IMG/VR virus record: IMGVR_UViG_2534681654_000010
DNA length: 43,779 nucleotides
Reading direction: 5' to 3' (one strand)
DNA from: a virus
Taxonomy: Duplodnaviria > Heunggongvirae > Uroviricota > Caudoviricetes
The position numbers were made by a program, and so were the translations under genes. The notes beneath the pieces were generated by a model that ran no database searches, was not told the origin of the DNA, and saw only the letters and a program-made list of their open reading frames with translations. This document shows, one piece after another, positions 2,937 to 43,779 of this stretch; within the stretch, counting starts at the first letter, position 1; each line of letters starts with the position of its first letter.

Positions 2937-2981
2937 AAATCGGCGCTTTTCTTTTGAGTTTTAGAATGAGTTTTTAAGCGC

Positions 2982-3719
2982 TCATTCACTCTCTTTCAAA
3001 CCAGTTTTAACTGTTTGTGGTTTTGGGTAAGGCTGGACTTTGAATAGCTTTGTGTTGAGGCGTTTTCTGGCCCTCTTGTTCAGAAACCGGATGTAACGAA
3101 ACTGTCGGAACTTATGAACACTGGCTCTGTCAATATTAGCCCTCAGATGTTCACCTCGTTGTCCGCCTCGTTTAATGGCATTCCTGCAAATCTCGTGATA
3201 CCACTCGCCATCAAGTTCATAGAATATTGATTCATGGCTGCCTACATAATCAAAATTGCTTGCCTGATACACGACACCAAGACAGCCACAACGCTCATCT
3301 GCAAACGACTGAACCCACTGTACCTGCGGATAAAGCTGCCTGATTAGCTTGAGCGCGTAACTGATTGCCCTTGATTCGGAGTTTCTCGGCATACAGTCAT
3401 GCAGCCATAGCCGGTTAAGCTCCATATATTCTCGGTTCTGCGTACCCGTTACGACGCGTGCACCACTGTTTGGGTTAAGGGCGTAACCCCATTGCATTAC
3501 GCCAACAAGTTCCCGTTCTGAAAATATGCCCAGATGAAGGTAGGAGTTATTTACGAAACGGTGGCTGTAATGTTTATTGACGATGACCAGTCTGGCCAGC
3601 CAGCAACTTATTGTCTCAACCCGCAACTCACGGGAGCCATAACCAACGATATTGTCGTTATAGCGAATAAGTTCAGGCGTGCTGATGATTCGGGATGTGA
3701 CTTGCTTTCTGTTCCCCAC
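2982..3719 (-). CDS. mom: DNA modification protein Mom (adenine modification, anti-restriction)
   Basis: Product …[59 protein letters not shown]… matches my recollection of Mu Mom; last gene before the element end; 5' end overlaps com. Exact start codon uncertain. Confidence 0.8.
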
Positions 3720-3873
3720 GACAGGATTTCCTTGTGTATGTGGGGTGCTCTGTGGCGCTCGGAGATGTGATTTGATTGAGGGTTTTACAGCGCGGACATT
3801 TTACTTCCAGATAACTGAAACTGGCCCGTGCCAGTAGCTTATTGCAGTGTCGGCACCGTATGTTTCGATACAT
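3673..3873 (-). CDS. com: Com zinc-finger translational activator of mom
   Basis: [14 protein letters not shown]…CPRCK… has the CxxC…CxxC zinc ribbon and resembles Mu Com; AGGAGG RBS upstream of the ATG at 3873; 3' end overlaps mom. Confidence 0.75.
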
Positions 3874-3960
3874 GACCGCATAACCTCCTGCTTTGTTGTT
3901 GATGCCTTTCTCATGCAATCGATCGACAAAAACGATCGATTCGATTTGTTTAATTGATAC
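3874..3960 (-). promoter_or_regulatory. putative mom promoter/operator region with clustered Dam GATC sites
   Basis: GATC at about 3921-3924 and 3934-3937 (two more near 4044-4059) just upstream of com, followed by an AT-rich tract; Mu mom expression is Dam-methylation dependent. Confidence 0.4.
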
Positions 3961-4284
3961 AACAAATAGATTGAAAAGTCATCAACAATGATTCAGGGAG
4001 GTGATTATTTACTTAAAGAAAACGAAGAGTTAGGTGGTGAAAACGATCATAAAATGATCATTTTATTGACTTTTTATACAGTGAAGGTAGGATCACGCGT
4101 ATATGTAGTATGTTTCAAATCAACAGGATACTACATAAAAGTGAAACCCAGCATAGCTGGAACTATGCTGGGTCAATCTGTAAAAACTTGCATCAATGCT
4201 TTACTTCGAGCTCGTGGCGTATCCTATGATATTCCCCGGTCTCCTGTAAAGCAGAGATGCATAAAAAGGAGATCTTTATCATGG

Positions 4285-4452
4285 ATGAAAGAGCCTGTTT
4301 GCCCTGCCTGTAAGACTCCCTTACAGCTCATCTATCGCCGTTCTCGATCTCAAAATGGCAAGACATACAAACCCAAAAATGCTTCCTGTTTCAGGATGCT
4401 GATATGTCCTGCCTGTTCTCCCAGGAGGGAAAATACACAAAACGTGCATTAA
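4285..4452 (+). CDS. hypothetical small zinc-ribbon protein (CPAC…CPAC), speculative
   Basis: 55-codon frame MKEPVCPACKTPLQ…CFRMLICPACSPRR… with two CPxC motifs; AAAAAGGAGA lies upstream but is better spaced for a 10-codon ORF at 4281; AT-rich context. Confidence 0.3.
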   Translation: MKEPVCPACKTPLQLIYRRSRSQNGKTYKPKNASCFRMLICPACSPRRENTQNVH

Positions 4453-4490: not shown

Positions 4491-4736
4491 TTACATCATA
4501 GTACCGTCAGTTCCGGGCTGAACCGGCTCTGGTTGCTCTACGGGTTGAGGATCATTTTCCGTGCTGTTTTCAGCCGGAGAACGGCCAACCATTCGGGCCA
4601 GCACTTCATCAACATATGCGTCGATTTGTGCCTCAAAATCCTTGCGAACCTGCGCCTTCAGCACGCGGTTCACTTCTTCAGAATAAAGTGCCTGTTTGAC
4701 AAGCTCTTCAGTAACCGTGCCTTTAATCTCTGGCAT
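4491..4736 (-). CDS. hypothetical 81-aa acidic protein
   Basis: ATG preceded by AAAGGAGA RBS; no family recognised. Confidence 0.5.
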   Translation of the reverse strand: MPEIKGTVTEELVKQALYSEEVNRVLKAQVRKDFEAQIDAYVDEVLARMVGRSPAENSTENDPQPVEQPEPVQPGTDGTMM

Positions 4737-4771: not shown

Positions 4772-4954
4772 TCAGAGCGGGGTCGGGTCGTTTGGGGATG
4801 ACGGTGCCTGTGCTGTTTTACTGAGTTTTTCAGCTGCCGCATCATCAATTTTACGGCGAATATAATTTCTGATGACCTTATAACCACCGCTCACCAGATA
4901 TAACGCACTGACCACAGCGCAGAAATAAAGCAGCATTGTATGAACGAATGTCAT
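4772..4954 (-). CDS. hypothetical 60-aa single-pass membrane protein
   Basis: ATG preceded by AAGGTAAGG RBS; hydrophobic N-terminal helix (MLLYFCAVVSALYLVSGG) then a charged tail. Confidence 0.5.
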   Translation of the reverse strand: MTFVHTMLLYFCAVVSALYLVSGGYKVIRNYIRRKIDDAAAEKLSKTAQAPSSPNDPTPL

Positions 4955-5100: not shown

Positions 5101-7140
5101 TTATTCTGTTACCGCTTTTTTCACTTCCACCACAATGCTGTCAATCAGCACCGGGTAAGTTGCATTTTTTGTGATATCCGTTACGCGGAGTTTGTCCACC
5201 GGGAAAGTTCCTACTGGTGACTGCGTCAGGGTAAACGCGGCACCATCCTGACCATCAATAACCGGAATAACCTGAAGGCTGTTATTTCCTGCAAAACGGA
5301 AGGCCAGCGTATGCCATTCATTATCAAATGCACCAAAGGTTCCCAGTTTCTGGTTATTTGTTGCCACTTTTGCATTGTGGTACATCACATTCAGGTCTTT
5401 TGCGTCTGTCTGGATGTAGAACGATGCCAGCAGATTATTCCCTGCATCCCCTGTCAGGGTGACACCCTGCGGCAGAGAGGAAACCGGCCAGTAAAGCCCC
5501 ATGACATACTGGTTTGCCACCAGGTCGCCAGGTACTTTAAAACGACAACTGATTAAACCACCATTTTTCAGCAGTTCAGCACCAGTACCGGCATCATGAT
5601 CCAGATACCAGGATGATTTACCTGTTTCCTTGGTCAGTTTCATTGCCTTACCACCTGTGCCTCCTGCATCACTGATAATTTCAGCTTTACCGCCAGCCGG
5701 CTCCCAGCCCTGGGCTTTCAGATTTCCTTCTGACTCACTGACACGATAAGACAGCAGTGTTGTGGTTACTGCTTCAGTTTCTGAAGGTGACGGCACTGGT
5801 GCTTCAGTTTCAGAAGATGGAACATCGGCTTTTACTGTGGTTCGCCCCGCATGAGTCAGAACTGCCGTGGCCAGACGGTCGGAAATAATCCCACGACGTG
5901 CCCATGAACTGAAATGGCTGGCCCGGTCCGCAGATGTCCAGGTGGCGGCACTGTTACGCCACGTTGAGCCGTAATAACCAATGGATTCAATATCCGGGTC
6001 TTCTGCCGGATTGTTGGTGGGTACATTCGCGTCATTTTCATCTGTCATTAATGGAACGAAATGAATGTTTTTATCTGTTTTGTTTTTGTAGCCGCCATAG
6101 ATTGCCTGGTATGCCGGTTCATTTTTCTGTTTCCAGAAATACGTGGTATCGCCACAAATCCACGGAACGCCAGCAGCACTGCCACCGGTACACTGTTCCG
6201 CCTGTTCAGCCAGGTCTGCGCGGAATTTTTCCACCATCGCCAGAAACAGCGCGGAATGCTCCGTCGGCTTCGCATCAATATCAAACTCGCCCTGCATCCA
6301 CACCACAGCAAGCAGGCGGTTTTTCGGGTTCTTCGCCAGTGCCGCTTTTGTCCGGCTGATTAAGTCCTTATACAGCGGCTTATCCACACCCCAGCGGGCT
6401 GAGTCCTCTGAAGCACCCGTGCTGTCACTGTACGTGCCGTCAGCACCCGCCGTGAATGCAGAACCACCACGGCAGCAGGGAACCAGCAGAATCCCCGCAT
6501 CTGCCGGAATAAACGGCAGCAGTTTTTTGGCAATGTGAAGCCCCTGACCCACGGTGCCATATTGCCCTTTAGCCACATCCGCTTTCGGGTGATTTTTTCC
6601 ACTCATATCCTGCACATCATGCAGACAGTGGTCGGCCAGAATGATGTCGTTATACTGACAGGCTTTACCTCCCGGCGTGACTGTACTGCGACGGGCTAAC
6701 TGCATAATACGCGGTTCGGGGCGGTCATATGTCTCCGGCAGTGGCAGACCTTCACCGTAAGCCATACCGTTTGACTGACCAGCAAGAACCACCACGTAAT
6801 ACCAGGAAGGGGAGCTGGAAGCAGTTTCATTTCCTGACGGACGGGTATGTGTTTCAGCATTATCCCAGTCTGACGGTTCAGCAGTACCGGCAACATCAGC
6901 ACTTAACGGAATGACCGCACCAATACCCGCTCCGGTAATTTCCACACTCGGATCACCGGATACTGGCCTTACCCACAGGCAATCCCGTGTATTAAAACTG
7001 ATGAGACAGTCAGCAAATGTCATTCCTCCTTTTGTTTCGGCCGGAGGAAAGGGAGCCTCAAGAAATGCCGCTGTACCACCGGAAACTTTAACAGTAAAGT
7101 TTCCGGGCATTGATGATAGTTGAACCCATTTGGACGTCAT
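5101..7140 (-). CDS. SGNH/SASA-family esterase, NanS-p-like (putative sialate O-acetylesterase) with C-terminal lectin-like domain
   Basis: 679 aa; GQSN serine motif in YYVVVLAGQSNGMAYGEG and overall resemblance to prophage-encoded NanS-p esterases of E. coli; lies between gin and com-mom. Confidence 0.6.
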   Translation of the reverse strand: MTSKWVQLSSMPGNFTVKVSGGTAAFLEAPFPPAETKGGMTFADCLISFNTRDCLWVRPVSGDPSVEITGAGIGAVIPLSADVAGTAEPSDWDNAETHTRPSGNETASSSPSWYYVVVLAGQSNGMAYGEGLPLPETYDRPEPRIMQLARRSTVTPGGKACQYNDIILADHCLHDVQDMSGKNHPKADVAKGQYGTVGQGLHIAKKLLPFIPADAGILLVPCCRGGSAFTAGADGTYSDSTGASEDSARWGVDKPLYKDLISRTKAALAKNPKNRLLAVVWMQGEFDIDAKPTEHSALFLAMVEKFRADLAEQAEQCTGGSAAGVPWICGDTTYFWKQKNEPAYQAIYGGYKNKTDKNIHFVPLMTDENDANVPTNNPAEDPDIESIGYYGSTWRNSAATWTSADRASHFSSWARRGIISDRLATAVLTHAGRTTVKADVPSSETEAPVPSPSETEAVTTTLLSYRVSESEGNLKAQGWEPAGGKAEIISDAGGTGGKAMKLTKETGKSSWYLDHDAGTGAELLKNGGLISCRFKVPGDLVANQYVMGLYWPVSSLPQGVTLTGDAGNNLLASFYIQTDAKDLNVMYHNAKVATNNQKLGTFGAFDNEWHTLAFRFAGNNSLQVIPVIDGQDGAAFTLTQSPVGTFPVDKLRVTDITKNATYPVLIDSIVVEVKKAVTE

Positions 7141-7239: not shown

Positions 7240-7800
7240 TTATTTTTCCGAAACGCTCGCAGGATAATAACGATAAAGGGTTGAAAGGCCGATATCAAAA
7301 ATAAGTGCCACCTGTCTTCGACTGACACCCCCGGCCAGTAAACGCCCGACCTGCTCGTATTGTTCCTGCGTGAGACGACGGGGTCTGCCGCCGGTTCGTC
7401 CCCTTTCACGGGCAGCTGCAAGACCAGCCCGTGTCCGTTCGACAATTAATTCACGCTCCATTTCTGCCAGCGCACCCATTATGTGAAAAAAGAAGCGCCC
7501 CATGGGGGGTGACGTATCAATGTTGTCAGTAAGACTACGAAAATTTATCCCCTGTTGCTGTAATTCATCTGTCAGCGCAACAAGGTGGCGCATACTGCGC
7601 CCCAGCCTGTCCAGTTTCCAGACCATCAGTGTGTCACCGGGTTTTAGTTTCTTCAGTGCCCGCTTCAGTCCCGGCCGCTGTGTCGTTTTACCACTCATTT
7701 TATCTTCAAAAATCTGCTCACATCCTGCACATTCCAGCGCATTTCTTTGTAAACCTGTGTTCTGGTCATTTGTTGATACGCGTATATAGCCAATCAGCAT
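7240..7800 (-). CDS. gin: Gin-type serine recombinase (DNA invertase)
   Basis: MLIGYIRVSTNDQNTGLQRNALECAGCEQIFEDKMSG… is a typical Gin/Hin/Pin/Cin resolvase-family invertase with C-terminal HTH; adjacent to the invertible tail-fibre segment. Confidence 0.9.
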   Translation of the reverse strand: MLIGYIRVSTNDQNTGLQRNALECAGCEQIFEDKMSGKTTQRPGLKRALKKLKPGDTLMVWKLDRLGRSMRHLVALTDELQQQGINFRSLTDNIDTSPPMGRFFFHIMGALAEMERELIVERTRAGLAAARERGRTGGRPRRLTQEQYEQVGRLLAGGVSRRQVALIFDIGLSTLYRYYPASVSEK

Positions 7801-7880: not shown

Positions 7881-8226
7881 TACTGTAAACAGGGCCGCGA
7901 ATGCCCTGCCATCGAACGGAGCGGCTGTTGCAGCGAATAAACTCGCCACTCCAAGAAATATTAATGGTGTCCCATTTGACGGAACGCAGGATATAAATAT
8001 TACATCGGGGATGACGCAGTCTGTGGCTGACTCACGTTATGTTCAAAGCATTCGAAGAGGTTCAAGGTCAACGATTGGAATGCAATATAATATTTTTGAG
8101 GTTCCTGACGGATGCGTACTTACAGGGCTTGATGTCGCTGGTGATGGTAATGCAACGGTAACCGCATATTATCGACCTGTTCAGTTTCTGATAGATGGTT
8201 CGTGGAAAACAGCTTCCAGCGCATAA
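7861..8226 (+). other. silent alternative tail-fibre C-terminal cassette (S'v), no start codon of its own in this orientation
   Basis: Frame open from 7777 to 8226; encodes …ALPSNGAAVAANKLATPRNINGVPFDGTQDINITSGMTQSVADSRYVQ… homologous to the C-terminal region of the expressed fibre gene on the opposite strand, then a different tip (…YYRPVQFLIDGSWKTASSA). Confidence 0.65.
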
Positions 8227-8861: not shown

Positions 8862-9773
8862 TTACACTGAACTTACCGTTCTCCAGGCATTATTAATATA
8901 AATCTGAACCGGGCGATAATAGACCCCACCGATATTGTCCGCAGACCGGGAGCCGGTTTCCTGCACGTTAATTCCGGAAAGCATACAACCGGAAGGTGCG
9001 CTGTAATTCCATGACATTTCATTGCCTCCGGGTGAATGATAGCTCTGTGCTCCAAGCTGAACATTCTGTACATACCGGCCATCTGCGGTTGACTGCGTCA
9101 TTCCTGACGTGATGTTGATATCCAGCGTTCCGTCAAAAGGAACACCATTAATATTTCTTGGGGTGGCGAGTCTGTTTGCTGCCACGGCGGTTCCACCCGA
9201 TGGCAGGGCATCAGCAGCCTTATTTACCGTTTCCCGTAAACCAACGTTATCGATAAAAGCGCCTTTATCCGGAATGTCTGCGCCGTTCTGCTCCCTGCGC
9301 AGGTAACGGTTATCACCTTCGCTTTTGCTGTAAACATCCAGATTATTACGGGCGGTTCCCGCATTCTCCAGGTCGGCAAGGTTCTGATCCTTCGCCAGAG
9401 CATTAACGTCACCGGGACCAAGACTGTTTTTTGTGGCAAGCGCCCCAAGACCAAGATAACCACGGGCAAGACGCTGGGCTTCCGCACCGGCATCAGCAAT
9501 TTCTTTCAGGTTGTTTTTCCGGGAAAAGGCATTCGCAGCGATAATGGCTTTAATGGACAGCGTAAGCTGGTTTAACTGCGCCTTATCCGGCTGAATACTG
9601 GCTTCAGCCAGAATATTCAGCAGTTCGGCCTGGAGAATATTCAGCCAGTCCTGACCAATCCAGCTGATACCTTTTTGTCCGTCACCTTCGGTAAACCAGG
9701 TGGTGGTATTACTCTGCGCCGGTGCCAGCGCAGGCATATTCGCCACGCCGGAATTATTATCAACATGGAACAT
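8862..9773 (-). CDS. S: tail fibre protein (constant N-terminus fused to the currently expressed variable C-terminus, Sv)
   Basis: Start MFHVDNNSGVANMPALAP… overlaps the stop of the upstream gene (TAATG); the C-terminal ~120 aa lie inside the invertible segment and end …GGVYYRPVQIYINNAWRTVSSV. Confidence 0.75.
   Translation of the reverse strand: MFHVDNNSGVANMPALAPAQSNTTTWFTEGDGQKGISWIGQDWLNILQAELLNILAEASIQPDKAQLNQLTLSIKAIIAANAFSRKNNLKEIADAGAEAQRLARGYLGLGALATKNSLGPGDVNALAKDQNLADLENAGTARNNLDVYSKSEGDNRYLRREQNGADIPDKGAFIDNVGLRETVNKAADALPSGGTAVAANRLATPRNINGVPFDGTLDINITSGMTQSTADGRYVQNVQLGAQSYHSPGGNEMSWNYSAPSGCMLSGINVQETGSRSADNIGGVYYRPVQIYINNAWRTVSSV
9231..9256. repeat. gix-like recombination site inside the tail-fibre gene
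   Basis: TTCCCGTAAACCAACGTTATCGATAA resembles Gin/Cin/Hin crossover sites; inverted ~170-bp homology with 7873-8040 runs inward from here (about 9065-9240). Confidence 0.55.
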
Positions 9774-10333
9774 TAAATATTCTCCTCTTCGTGACTGTTT
9801 GCATATACGTAAATAAACGTCTGCCATGCAGGCTTATAACGGTTCAGAATACATTCCAGCGCACCGCCTTCATAAATACGCAGCGGCGTGAGAATATCAT
9901 CCAGCACATTCATATTCCGGTAGCCGGTTTCACTGTTAATCGTGACAATACTGACCCACTGTGAATCCGGTGATGGCTGAATATCTATTTCATAACCAAA
10001 CTCTGCCGCAAACCGGATATAAAATTCACGGTTAAGAGAGGGTTTCATCCGGTATTTATTCCCGGCATAACGCTGACGCTCCTGAATGGTTGCGCCGGTC
10101 ATATCACATTCCGGTAACCCCAGATAACGCTCCCAGTCTTCCAGCAGCAGACGGGATGAATCAGGAAAACGTTCTGCCAGCATCTGGTTACCGGTCCAGG
10201 AAACACGCTCCGTGGAATGACTGAGGCCCAGGCACAAAGCCGCAAGAACGGATGACGGCCGCTTATCCCATGCCAGCCCGTCAGGCAGCAACTGCAACAG
10301 GGCGCGCTGATGCGGGGTCAGGGTTACAGCCAT
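9773..10333 (-). CDS. Mu gp48-like tail protein (DUF2313/YmfQ-like)
   Basis: 186-aa ORF between the baseplate J-like gene and the tail fibre; position and size match Mu gp48. Confidence 0.55.
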   Translation of the reverse strand: MAVTLTPHQRALLQLLPDGLAWDKRPSSVLAALCLGLSHSTERVSWTGNQMLAERFPDSSRLLLEDWERYLGLPECDMTGATIQERQRYAGNKYRMKPSLNREFYIRFAAEFGYEIDIQPSPDSQWVSIVTINSETGYRNMNVLDDILTPLRIYEGGALECILNRYKPAWQTFIYVYANSHEEENI

Positions 10334-41609: not shown

Positions 41610-41614
41610 GGGAT
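41610..41614. repeat. target-site duplication GGGAT, right copy
   Basis: Identical to 2850-2854; followed by H-homologous sequence gat cgt gaa aag…. Confidence 0.8.
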
Positions 41615-43090
41615 GATCGTGAAAAGGCCCGTCTTGCGCTTGAAGCCGCCCGAAAGAAGGCTGAGCAGCAGAGTCAACAGGACAAAAATGCGCAGCAACA
41701 GAGCGATACCGAAGCGTCACGGCTGAAATATACCGAAGAGGCGCAGAAGGCTTACGAACGCCTGCAGACGCCGCTGGAGAAATATACCGCCCGTCAGGAA
41801 GAACTGAATAAGGCACTGAAAGACGGGAAAATCCTGCAGGCAGATTACAACACGCTGATGGCGGCGGCGAAAAAGGACTATGAAGCGACGCTGAAAAAGC
41901 CGAAACAGTCCGGCGTGAAGGTGTCTGCGGGCGATCGTCAGGAAGACAGTGCTCATGCTGCCCTGCTGACGCTTCAGGCAGAACTCCGGATGCTGGAGAA
42001 GCATGCCGGAGCGAATGAGAAAATCAGCCAGCAGCGCCGGGATTTGTGGAAGGCAGAAAGTCAGTTCGCGGTACTGGAGGAGGCGGCACAACGTCGCCAG
42101 CTGTCCGCACAGGAGAAATCCCTGCTGGCGCATAAAGACGAGACGCTGGAGTACAAACGCCAGCTGGCTGTACTTGGCGACAAGGTCACCTATCAGGAGC
42201 ACCTGAACGCGCTGGCACAGCAGGCGGATAAATTCGCACAGCAACAACGGGCAAAACGGGCCGCCATTGATGCAAAAAACCGGGGGCTGACTGACCGGCA
42301 GGCAGCGCGGGAAGCCACGGAACAGCGCCTGAAGGAACAGTATGGCGATAATCCTCTGGCGCTGAATAACGTCATGTCAGAGCAGAAAAAGACCTGGGCA
42401 GCTGAAGACCAGCTTCGCGGGAGCTGGATGGCAGGCCTCAGGTCAGGCTGGAGTGAGTGGGAAGAGAGCGCCACGGACAGTATGTCGCAGGTTAAAAGTG
42501 CTGCCACGCAGACCTTTGATGGTATTGCACAGAATATGGCGGCGATGCTGACCGGCAGTGAACAGAACTGGCGCAGCTTCACCCGTTCCGTGCTGTCCAT
42601 GATGACAGAAATTCTGCTTAAGCAGGCAATGGTGGGGATTGTCGGAAGTATAGGCAGCGCCATTGGCGGCGGCGCATCAGCGTCAGGCGGTACAGCCATT
42701 CAGGCAGCTGCGGCGAAATTCCATTTTGCGGCCGGAGGGTTTACGGGAACCGGCGGCAAATATGAGCCAGCGGGGATTGTTCACCGTGGTGAATTTGTCT
42801 TCACGAAGGAGGCAACCAGCCGGATTGGCGTAGGAAATCTTTACCGGCTGATGCGCGGCTATGCCACCGGCGGTTATGTCGGTACACCGGGCAGCATGGC
42901 GGACAGCCGGTCGCAGGCGTCCGGGACGTTTGAGCAGAATAACCATGTGGTGATTAACAACGACGGCACGAACGGTCAGATAGGGCCACAGGCACTGAAG
43001 GCGGTTTATGACGTAGCCCGTAAGGCGGCAATGGATGTTGTGACCGGGCAGATGCGCGATGGTGGTCTGTTCTCCGGAGGTGGACGATGA
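41610..43090 (+). pseudogene. H: tape measure protein H, C-terminal fragment, separated from its 5' part by the Mu-like insertion
   Basis: Frame reads …DDREKARLALEAARKKAEQQ… to …MRDGGLFSGGGR*, matching the lambda gpH C-terminal portion; in frame with the N-terminal fragment once the insertion and one TSD copy are removed. Confidence 0.9.
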
Positions 43091-43416
43091 AAACCTTCCG
43101 CTGGAAAGTGAAACCCGGTATGGATGTGGCTTCGGCCCCTTCCGTAAGAAAGGTGCGCTTTGGTGATGGCTATTCCCAGCGAGCGCCTGCCGGGCTGAAT
43201 GCCGACCTGAAAACGTACAGCGTGACGCTTTCTGTTCCCCGTTGGGAGGCCACGGCGCTTGAGTCGTTTCTGGCTGAGCACGGGGGCTGGAAGGCCTTTC
43301 TGTGGACGCCGCCTTATGAGTGGCGGCAGATAAAGGTGACCTGCGCAAAATGGTCGTCGCGGGTCAGTATGCTGCGTGTTGAGTTCAGCGCAGAGTTTGA
43401 ACAGGTGGTGAACTGA
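43087..43416 (+). CDS. M: minor tail protein M
   Basis: 109 aa MKTFRWKVKPGMDVASAPSVRKVRFGDGYSQRAPAGLNADLKTYSV… matches lambda gpM; ATGA overlap with the H stop. Confidence 0.9.
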   Translation: MKTFRWKVKPGMDVASAPSVRKVRFGDGYSQRAPAGLNADLKTYSVTLSVPRWEATALESFLAEHGGWKAFLWTPPYEWRQIKVTCAKWSSRVSMLRVEFSAEFEQVVN

Positions 43417-43779
43417 TGCAGGATATCCGGCAGGAAACACTGAATGAATGCACCCGTGCGGAGCAGTCGGCCAGCGTGGTGCTCTGGGAAATCGATCTGA
43501 CAGAGGTCGGTGGAGAACGTTATTTTTTCTGTAATGAGCAGAACGAAAAAGGTGAGCCGGTCACCTGGCAGGGGCGACAGTATCAGCCGTATCCCATTCA
43601 GGGGAGTGGTTTTGAACTGAATGGCAAAGGCACCAGTACGCGCCCCACGCTGACGGTTTCTAACCTGTACGGTATGGTCACCGGGATGGCGGAAGATCTG
43701 CAGAGTCTGGTCGGCGGAACGGTGGTCCGGCGTAAGGTTTACGCCCGTTTTCTGGATGCGGTGAACTTCGTCAACGGAA
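43416..43779 (+). CDS. L: minor tail protein L, N-terminal part (3' end outside window)
   Basis: ATG at 43416 overlapping the M stop; frame open to the window end; MQDIRQETLNECTRAEQSASVVLWEIDLTEV… matches lambda gpL. Confidence 0.85.
   Translation, partial: MQDIRQETLNECTRAEQSASVVLWEIDLTEVGGERYFFCNEQNEKGEPVTWQGRQYQPYPIQGSGFELNGKGTSTRPTLTVSNLYGMVTGMAEDLQSLVGGTVVRRKVYARFLDAVNFVNG

Follow-up and report, generated by a model that had tools for sequence, protein, structure and literature searches.

A NanS-p-family sialate O-acetylesterase gene near the right end of an Sp18-like Mu-type prophage, between gin and com-mom, with a different N-terminal domain in place of DUF1737

The window (the whole stretch of DNA that was analysed, 43,779 nucleotides, IMG/VR virus record IMGVR_UViG_2534681654_000010) contains an entire Mu-type prophage of pathogenic E. 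coli (~2854-41609, right end at ~2854), and the present analysis concerns one gene close to that right end. The gene was found in the list of open reading frames (ORFs) at 5101..7140 on the minus strand, uninterrupted, ATG-started and 679 amino acids (aa) long, and its presence in intact form between the DNA invertase gene gin and the com-mom pair of an Sp18-like Mu-type prophage was confirmed. This family of Mu-like prophages is typified by Sp18 of O157 Sakai, and the window was assigned to it from the literature description, not by comparison with the Sakai sequence. The gene, its domains and linkers, and the genes bounding the insert are collated below, with positions given in window coordinates.

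5101..7140, minus strand: NanS-p-family sialate O-acetylesterase gene, 679 aa (RefSeq WP_010917876.1, 'DUF6645 domain-containing protein')
6856..7140, minus strand: N-terminal domain, aa 1-95, standing where DUF1737 would be; homologues on Mu-like esterases only
6805..6855, minus strand: linker 1, aa 96-112, rich in Ser, Thr, Pro and Glu (…ETASSSPSW); recombination breakpoint
5836..6804, minus strand: catalytic SGNH type II / SASA domain, aa 113-435 (Pfam, PDB sequence search)
5761..5835, minus strand: linker 2, aa 436-460, rich in Pro, Ser, Glu and Thr (alignment)
5101..5760, minus strand: C-terminal lectin-like jelly-roll domain (DUF6645), aa 461-679 plus stop codon (Pfam, PDB 6YP6)
7240..7800, minus strand: gin-type serine DNA invertase (Pfam Resolvase and HTH_7), upstream boundary of the insert
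3673-3873 (RefSeq start) or 3673-3918 (first TTG), minus strand: com (Pfam Com)
2982-3719, minus strand: mom (Pfam Mom), with com the downstream boundary of the insert

The order and orientation of gin, com and mom are those of Mu, D108 and SfMu (genus Muvirus), and gin and mom are ~71% identical to their Mu counterparts at the nucleotide level (71.5% for gin). The spacing differs: com follows gin after 94 bp in Mu and after 82 bp in D108 and SfMu, whereas the Sp18-like lineage has ~3.3 kb at this place (com start at 3918 or 3873 in the window), comprising the esterase gene, DUF1378, DUF826 and a variable segment. An insert of this size relative to Mu had been described in an earlier note on this DNA, and the measured distances agree with it. 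The guanine-plus-cytosine (GC) content of the insert is 0.40-0.53, as against 0.55-0.61 for the Mu-like structural genes.

The catalytic domain was recognised by two routes. In Pfam, SASA (PF03629) was matched over aa 116-312 with an expectation value (E) of 6.5e-12, exceeding the curated cut-off, and in a sequence search of the PDB the chromosomal E. coli NanS (YjhS, 3PT5) was aligned with aa 104-428 (E 1.9e-118). In the latter alignment, the offset of which is constant at 11, Gln122, Ser123 (codon 6772-6774) and His409 (codon 5914-5916) fall opposite Gln18, Ser19 and His301, the catalytic residues of NanS, which are respectively oxyanion-hole residue, nucleophile and base (PMC9063846). All three were unchanged in an alignment of six sequences (the window protein and five relatives). 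The SGNH hallmarks are accordingly placed, with the block I nucleophile Ser in GQSN (aa 121-124, codons at window positions 6769-6780) and the block V His in SHF (aa 408-410); a conserved catalytic Asp, the third member of the classical triad, is missing from the esterase as it is from NanS (PMC9063846). Chromosomal NanS is homologous to the whole of the catalytic domain, but its chain (337 residues in 3PT5) covers only aa 104-428, and the window esterase has an N-terminal and a C-terminal lectin-like domain in addition.

The C-terminal part was assigned to DUF6645 (PF20350, aa 524-642, E 2.4e-69) and was aligned in the PDB sequence search with the C-terminal domain of NanS-p (6YP6, aa 459-674, E 1e-111), which is described as a lectin-like jelly roll by Franke et al. 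2020, as quoted in PMC10462455. Matches of this strength to the Pfam and PDB entries lie well outside what chance would give. The earlier note had proposed a NanS-p-like SGNH/SASA esterase of 679 aa with a GQSN block and a long, beta-rich C-terminal domain, and both parts of this description are borne out. Ratios of nonsynonymous to synonymous substitution (dN/dS) of 0.1-0.2 were obtained in the catalytic and C-terminal domains, where the ratio is measurable, and purifying selection acts on all three domains of the protein. The structure of the whole protein as predicted by AlphaFold 2 (AF2) from the single sequence had a predicted local distance difference test score (pLDDT) of 34, and this model was unusable.

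The same SASA/SGNH and DUF6645 domains are present in the NanS-p proteins of Shiga toxin (Stx) and other lambdoid phages, including 933W L0105, phi24B vb_24B_21/gp84 and the EDL933 paralogues. DNA homology with the nanS-p genes of ~300 Stx and lambdoid phage records extends from window position 6802 to 5112 at 77-81% identity, which corresponds approximately to aa 113 to 676 and starts at linker 1. At the protein level, the identity is 81% for aa 100-676 compared with the NanS-p of Stx phage 1720a-02, 82% for the catalytic domain compared with Stx-phage NanS-p, and 77-82% for the catalytic and C-terminal domains compared with the Stx/lambdoid proteins in general. Synonymous divergence (dS) between the window allele and its closest lambdoid alleles is ~1.0, and the window allele is therefore old. 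The Stx/lambdoid proteins resemble the window esterase further in being prophage-borne and in having no signal peptide obvious by eye.

The two groups part at the N-terminus. Stx/lambdoid NanS-p has DUF1737, whereas no match to this family was returned by Pfam at E<=0.01 for the whole window protein, and the N-terminal domain alone matched no Pfam family even at E<=10, DUF1737 and the carbohydrate-binding module (CBM) and lectin families included. In the positive control, the lambdoid NanS-p of 1720a-02 matched DUF1737 at E 1.6e-11, and aa 1-99 of the window protein had no alignable similarity to the N-terminus of that protein; comparison with the N-termini of other Stx-phage NanS-p proteins likewise gave no homology. 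A profile search for DUF1737, SASA and lectin-like domains, suggested by the earlier note, thus returned the second and the third but not the first. By these comparisons, an unrelated domain of ~95 aa takes the place of DUF1737 in the Mu-like esterase.

Homologues of the N-terminal domain were sought widely, and all that were found are esterase N-termini on enterobacterial Mu-like prophages. One is a second allele from E. coli and Shigella that is 62% identical and occurs in M1, in AST198 and in a fragment from Shigella sonnei; the other is a Salmonella enterica allele at 29% identity. An exhaustive HMMER search of 1.8 billion representatives gave five matches, all esterase N-termini except P0005, a low-complexity repeat protein that was judged spurious. 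A word-indexed protein search returned fragments of the same proteins only, tblastn against 50,697 phage records returned two Mu-like inserts only, and the searches of IMG/VR and of metagenomes returned the two E. coli alleles only. Nothing was found among GTDB species representatives, nor in IMG/VR with the Salmonella domain as query; no paralogue was found among the proteins encoded in the window, and no similarity to phage tail families was found in Pfam or PHROG. With dN at 0.28 and dS saturated between the two E. coli alleles, this is a real domain under purifying selection. It is weakly but reproducibly matched over nearly the full profile by phrog_4772 (E 0.004 for the window allele, 9.7e-6 for the Salmonella allele), a family of small stand-alone phage proteins with 79 positions and no annotated function. 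The AF2 model of the domain, computed from an alignment of six rows, was predicted as all-beta at low confidence (pLDDT 54), and a Foldseek search of it against the PDB gave nothing below E 0.6.

Downstream of the esterase gene, the insert carries the following further features.

4772..4954, minus strand: small membrane-like DUF1378 protein, 60 aa (Pfam; synteny with lambdoid 1720a-02)
4491..4736, minus strand: DUF826 protein, 81 aa (Pfam; synteny with lambdoid 1720a-02)
3988..4452, plus strand: Cys-rich hypothetical ORF, 154 aa, gene status uncertain, in the variable low-GC part of the insert

DUF1378 is 54% identical to the gene right after nanS-p in lambdoid phage 1720a-02, and DUF826 is 47% identical to the gene preceding holin S in the same phage. 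The gene order in Stx phages is Q - stx - nanS-p - (DUF1378) - (DUF826) - S - R - Rz, and the order esterase-DUF1378-DUF826 is what the Mu-like and lambdoid phages have in common. The surroundings of this block differ: nanS-p lies between Q/stx and the holin-endolysin cassette, ahead of holin S, in Stx/lambdoid phages, as is also stated in PMC10462455, and the window gene lies between gin and com-mom of a Mu-type transposable prophage. The earlier note had placed the lambdoid and Stx esterases downstream of tail-fibre genes, a premise that this order shows to be wrong.

The segment that holds the 154-aa Cys-rich ORF has the lowest GC content of the insert (0.40) and differs among related prophages. 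The ORF contains two CxxC pairs and matches phrog_26524 at E 2.5e-52, and a Pfam search with it gave no family. A terminator-like hairpin for the minus strand with a 13-bp stem (4145-4174) lies inside it. A palindromic GATC cluster (aTCGATCgtttttgtcGATCGATt) at ~3915-3945 on the minus strand, upstream of com, resembles the GATC-containing repeats found 5' of Mu com, in the Dam-methylation/OxyR region of the mom promoter.

Prevalence was determined in 5,426 complete E. coli genomes. The window-type N-terminal domain was found at 246 places in 205 genomes, the second type at 39 places in 28 genomes, and com-mom of the window lineage at 295 places in 233 genomes. With ~285 esterase places (246 + 39) against 295 com-mom places of the same lineage, nearly every copy of this Mu-like lineage carries the esterase. 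The earlier note had described the gene as cargo; it is instead an accessory gene conserved within the lineage, not an occasional passenger. Membership of the conserved core of related Mu-like phages, which that note had named as a finding that would refute its reading, is partly borne out: the gene is present in nearly all copies of the lineage and in Salmonella, but Mu, D108 and SfMu are without it. Single genomes, such as that of E. coli AST198 (NZ_AP043606.1) and others, hold up to five com-mom right ends and up to four esterase copies, which indicates several Mu-like prophages or transposed copies per chromosome. The segment from gin to com-mom recurs at 99.9-100% identity, with at least 80% of the query covered, in 168 of the 5,426 genomes and at many chromosomal positions. 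In every RefSeq match among those listed, the esterase ORF is intact and annotated at full length, under the name 'DUF6645 domain-containing protein' or 'sialate O-acetylesterase'.

The core order of the esterase (N-terminal domain, SASA, DUF6645), DUF1378 and DUF826 was observed in 34 of 34 IMG/VR loci as well as in M1 and AST198; where the contig reaches far enough, gin lies upstream (it is missing in some) and com-mom lies beyond a variable stretch. The esterase was likewise present in 17 of 17 metagenome loci, both sets having been picked by means of the N-terminal domain, so that they sample Mu-like prophages with the esterase and cannot show those without it. A distant Mu-like prophage of Salmonella enterica (GCA_037428405.1) has an esterase behind gin at the end of a Mu-type tail/baseplate module; the contig stops 153 codons into the gene, and the C-terminal architecture lies outside the sequence. 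Between gin and the esterase of this prophage (L042 9426-9910) there are two small ORFs, one of 58 aa that matches phrog_6330 and, weakly, 'hemolysin' families, and one of 87 aa that matches phrog_20491 and, weakly, transcription-regulator families.

Comparison of alleles points to a boundary at linker 1. In the JNE082796 copy (a Mu-like insert in an Stx2c phage), the N-terminal and catalytic domains match those of the window at 98-100% identity; the C-terminal domain shares 95% with lambdoid 1720a-02 and only 85% with the window. In loci L016-L019, the identity to the window is 97-98% for the N-terminal domain, 67% for the catalytic domain, 38-45% for the C-terminal domain and 59% for DUF1378. 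In its catalytic domain, the window protein has 82% identity to Stx-phage alleles but 71% to the other Mu-like allele. By these identities, everything after linker 1 is a patchwork: the catalytic and C-terminal parts have undergone repeated exchange, at least once (JNE082796) with a lambdoid-like allele, and the N-terminal domain stays with the Mu-like backbone. Strains with the Mu-like esterase often hold several lambdoid nanS-p copies.

The host element is of Mu type by its Gin, invertible fibre segment, Com/Mom, Mu A/B, head and baseplate genes and target duplication. It is co-linear, at 71-95% nucleotide identity, with the annotated prophage of E. coli M1 (NZ_CP010180.1, 3927500-3966080, in flgL), in which Mu transposase A/B, the head protein gpT and the baseplate genes gp45-48 are among the annotated features. 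The window prophage has inserted into a lambdoid prophage, where it splits the tape-measure (H-like) gene; V-, G- and T-like tail genes lie upstream, GGGA(T) is duplicated at the junctions (2850-2854 and 41610-41614), and joining the flanks (1-2853 and 41610-43779) restores an ORF of ~850 aa. The M1 prophage is without gin and has a single fibre/assembly gene pair. Protein identities between the window and M1 prophages are 90-98% for the head genes and 73-75% for the sheath, tape-measure, DNA-circulation and baseplate-hub proteins.

Beside gin in the window, a 71-aa ORF (8011-8226, plus strand) and the C-terminal part of a 321-aa tail-fibre ORF (8862-9827, minus strand) have a similar motif (MTQSVADSRYVQ… and MTQSTADGRYVQ…). 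Its occurrence on opposite strands next to gin is consistent with an invertible G-like segment that encodes alternative fibre tips; one of the two variants is much shorter than in Mu. In the Mu-like insert of JNE082796 (LC727881, 9426-10478, equivalent to window 2954-3706), a 350-aa ORF replaces mom behind an intact com; by eye it has motifs of DNA cytosine-5 methyltransferases (…GGTPCQAFS…, ENV). A similar 'Com | DNA cytosine methyltransferase' pair occurs in E. coli SW070917.

It is considered likely that the gene product is a working sialate O-acetylesterase of NanS-p type built from three modules, and that the gene is conserved by the lineage as an accessory gene between gin and com-mom of the Sp18-like prophage. 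Tested NanS-p enzymes act on 5-N-acetyl-9-O-acetylneuraminic acid (Neu5,9Ac2) and mucin according to the summaries in PMC10462455 and PMC8319020. By analogy with its ~80% identical relatives, the window enzyme would strip 9-O-acetyl groups (and 7/8-O-acetyl groups) from the sialic acids of mucin, and the deacetylation would open these to sialidases and the Nan catabolic pathway. No hydrophobic stretch was seen by eye at the N-terminus of the esterase (no predictor was run), and with no obvious signal peptide it would have to leave the cell through phage-induced lysis or attached to particles, and would meet its substrate by one of these routes. Neu5,9Ac2 would in this way be made usable for the surviving lysogen population. 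The N-terminal domain would serve as a phage-type-specific adaptor.

Several points weigh against this account. The substrate is assumed from relatives that are ~80% identical. Transfer may have gone either way between lambdoid and Mu-like phages. The search for a promoter of the esterase gene gave none: a sigma-70 scan did no better than chance, and the Mu C-protein box TTATN6ATAA is absent across the whole window, so that the sites of late-gene activation must differ from those of Mu. For the N-terminal domain, the AF2 model is of low confidence and the fold search was empty.

For that domain, two explanations of about equal likelihood were weighed. The first, a tentative one, is that the enzyme is soluble, set free by lysis and unconnected with the virion, and that the domain gives it a second module for carbohydrate binding or for oligomerisation. 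Its conservation, its beta-rich prediction and a flexible Ser/Pro linker of the kind seen with CBMs are consistent with such a role, as is the non-catalytic lectin-like module that NanS-p already possesses. The domain nevertheless resembles no CBM or lectin family in Pfam, and its distribution follows the type of phage, not the catalytic or C-terminal allele.

The second, somewhat doubtful explanation is that the enzyme is displayed on the virion: the N-terminal domain would be an anchor to a Mu-type particle (capsid or tail) in place of DUF1737, and the enzyme would act on mucus or the cell surface during infection. The suggestion stems from phi24B gp84, the DUF1737 of which is reported in a 2026 preprint to be a capsid-decoration domain present as a hexamer on the central hexons, cleavage at the linkers removing the remainder of the protein (bioRxiv 10.64898/2026.04.10.717836). 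The module that is replaced in the window protein is this capsid-binding one, and the DNA homology to lambdoid nanS-p begins at the linker just past the swapped module. DUF1737 and the window domain are both N-terminal, both precede a Ser-rich linker and both have small stand-alone phage-protein relatives (phrog_4772 for the window domain, weakly). The purifying selection on the domain and its strict co-segregation with the Mu-like phage type, while catalytic and C-terminal parts move between alleles, would also suit an anchor. The likeness to the capsid-binding domain of phi24B is nonetheless one of position alone: DUF1737 has ~55 aa with one helix and three strands, the window domain has ~95 aa and is predicted, at low confidence, to be all-beta, and there is no sequence similarity between them. 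The AF2 model of the domain was too poor for a comparison of folds, and Foldseek returned nothing. The co-segregation is moreover explicable by recombination mechanics alone, since exchange of the 5' end would need homology on the far side of the linker, and there is none. Between the window and M1 prophages, identity is 97.5% for the major head protein and 62% for the N-terminal domains, which is unlike a tightly co-evolving capsid contact; this check of co-variation with virion proteins covers two backbones, too few to name a partner. The broader proposal that NanS-p-type esterases might be modular, virion-displayed mucus modifiers, with an N-terminal adaptor swapped for each type of phage particle and the present domain as the Mu-type virion-binding module, is drawn by analogy with phi24B and is viewed as rather unlikely. 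If it were true, the particles of Mu-like phages from enterohaemorrhagic E. coli would bear a sialate O-acetylesterase.

The earlier note had suggested a mobile, tail-fibre-associated glycan-esterase cassette, a reading under which the enzyme would be linked in function to host recognition, for instance by deacetylating a polysaccharide receptor on the bacterial surface. This is improbable, even though the gene lies ~100 bp behind gin and the invertible tail-fibre segment in Mu-like phages, SGNH domains occur in some phage tail proteins, and the 'tail protein' family phrog_25867 weakly matches aa 210-311 (E 4.4e-5). The block common to both phage groups is esterase-DUF1378-DUF826, the members of which move together, and the fibre genes do not move with it; in lambdoid/Stx phages, the gene between stx and the lysis cassette is distant from the tail fibres. 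The block esterase-DUF1378-DUF826-com-mom is retained in the M1 prophage, from which gin and part of the invertible segment have disappeared. Among characterised relatives, the closest ones have sialic acids as substrates, the lectin module of NanS-p makes up the C-terminal domain, and the N-terminal domain is without similarity to the window proteins or to phage tail families. The nearness to the fibre genes reflects the position of the right-end accessory region in a Mu-like phage.

A decaying, functionless fused pseudogene left by a recombination accident, which the chimeric architecture in a low-GC variable region might bring to mind, is strongly disfavoured by the full-length ORF in every RefSeq match listed, the dN/dS of 0.1-0.2 in the catalytic and C-terminal domains, the conservation of the N-terminal domain down to 29% in Salmonella and the intact catalytic residues.

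With respect to novelty, the esterase gene (annotated in RefSeq), the kind of enzyme and the host prophage family are already known, and the enzyme itself is ordinary; the domain swap, the strict association with phage type and the recombination across families are what is worth following. In the literature searched, no paper tying nanS-p to Mu-like phages, none mentioning DUF6645 and no description of the N-terminal swap was found.

NanS-p esterases let enterohaemorrhagic E. coli use the O-acetylated sialic acids of gut mucus and have been studied so far in lambdoid/Stx prophages. A second, unrelated lineage of transposable phages maintains such an esterase in 233 complete E. coli genomes (205 + 28 by type of N-terminal domain), and most of the genomes listed belong to Shiga-toxin-producing serotypes, e.g., O157:H7, O26, O111, O103 and O145. 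Counts of nanS-p dosage that are restricted to lambdoid prophages would miss the Mu-like copy. Recombination at this locus works at the level of domains: prophages of different families that reside in the same cell exchange segments, and the breakpoints fall in the inter-domain linkers. The module that differs between the phage types is the one lately reported to bind the capsid in phi24B, and the idea of particle-borne enzymes with exchangeable adaptors becomes testable.

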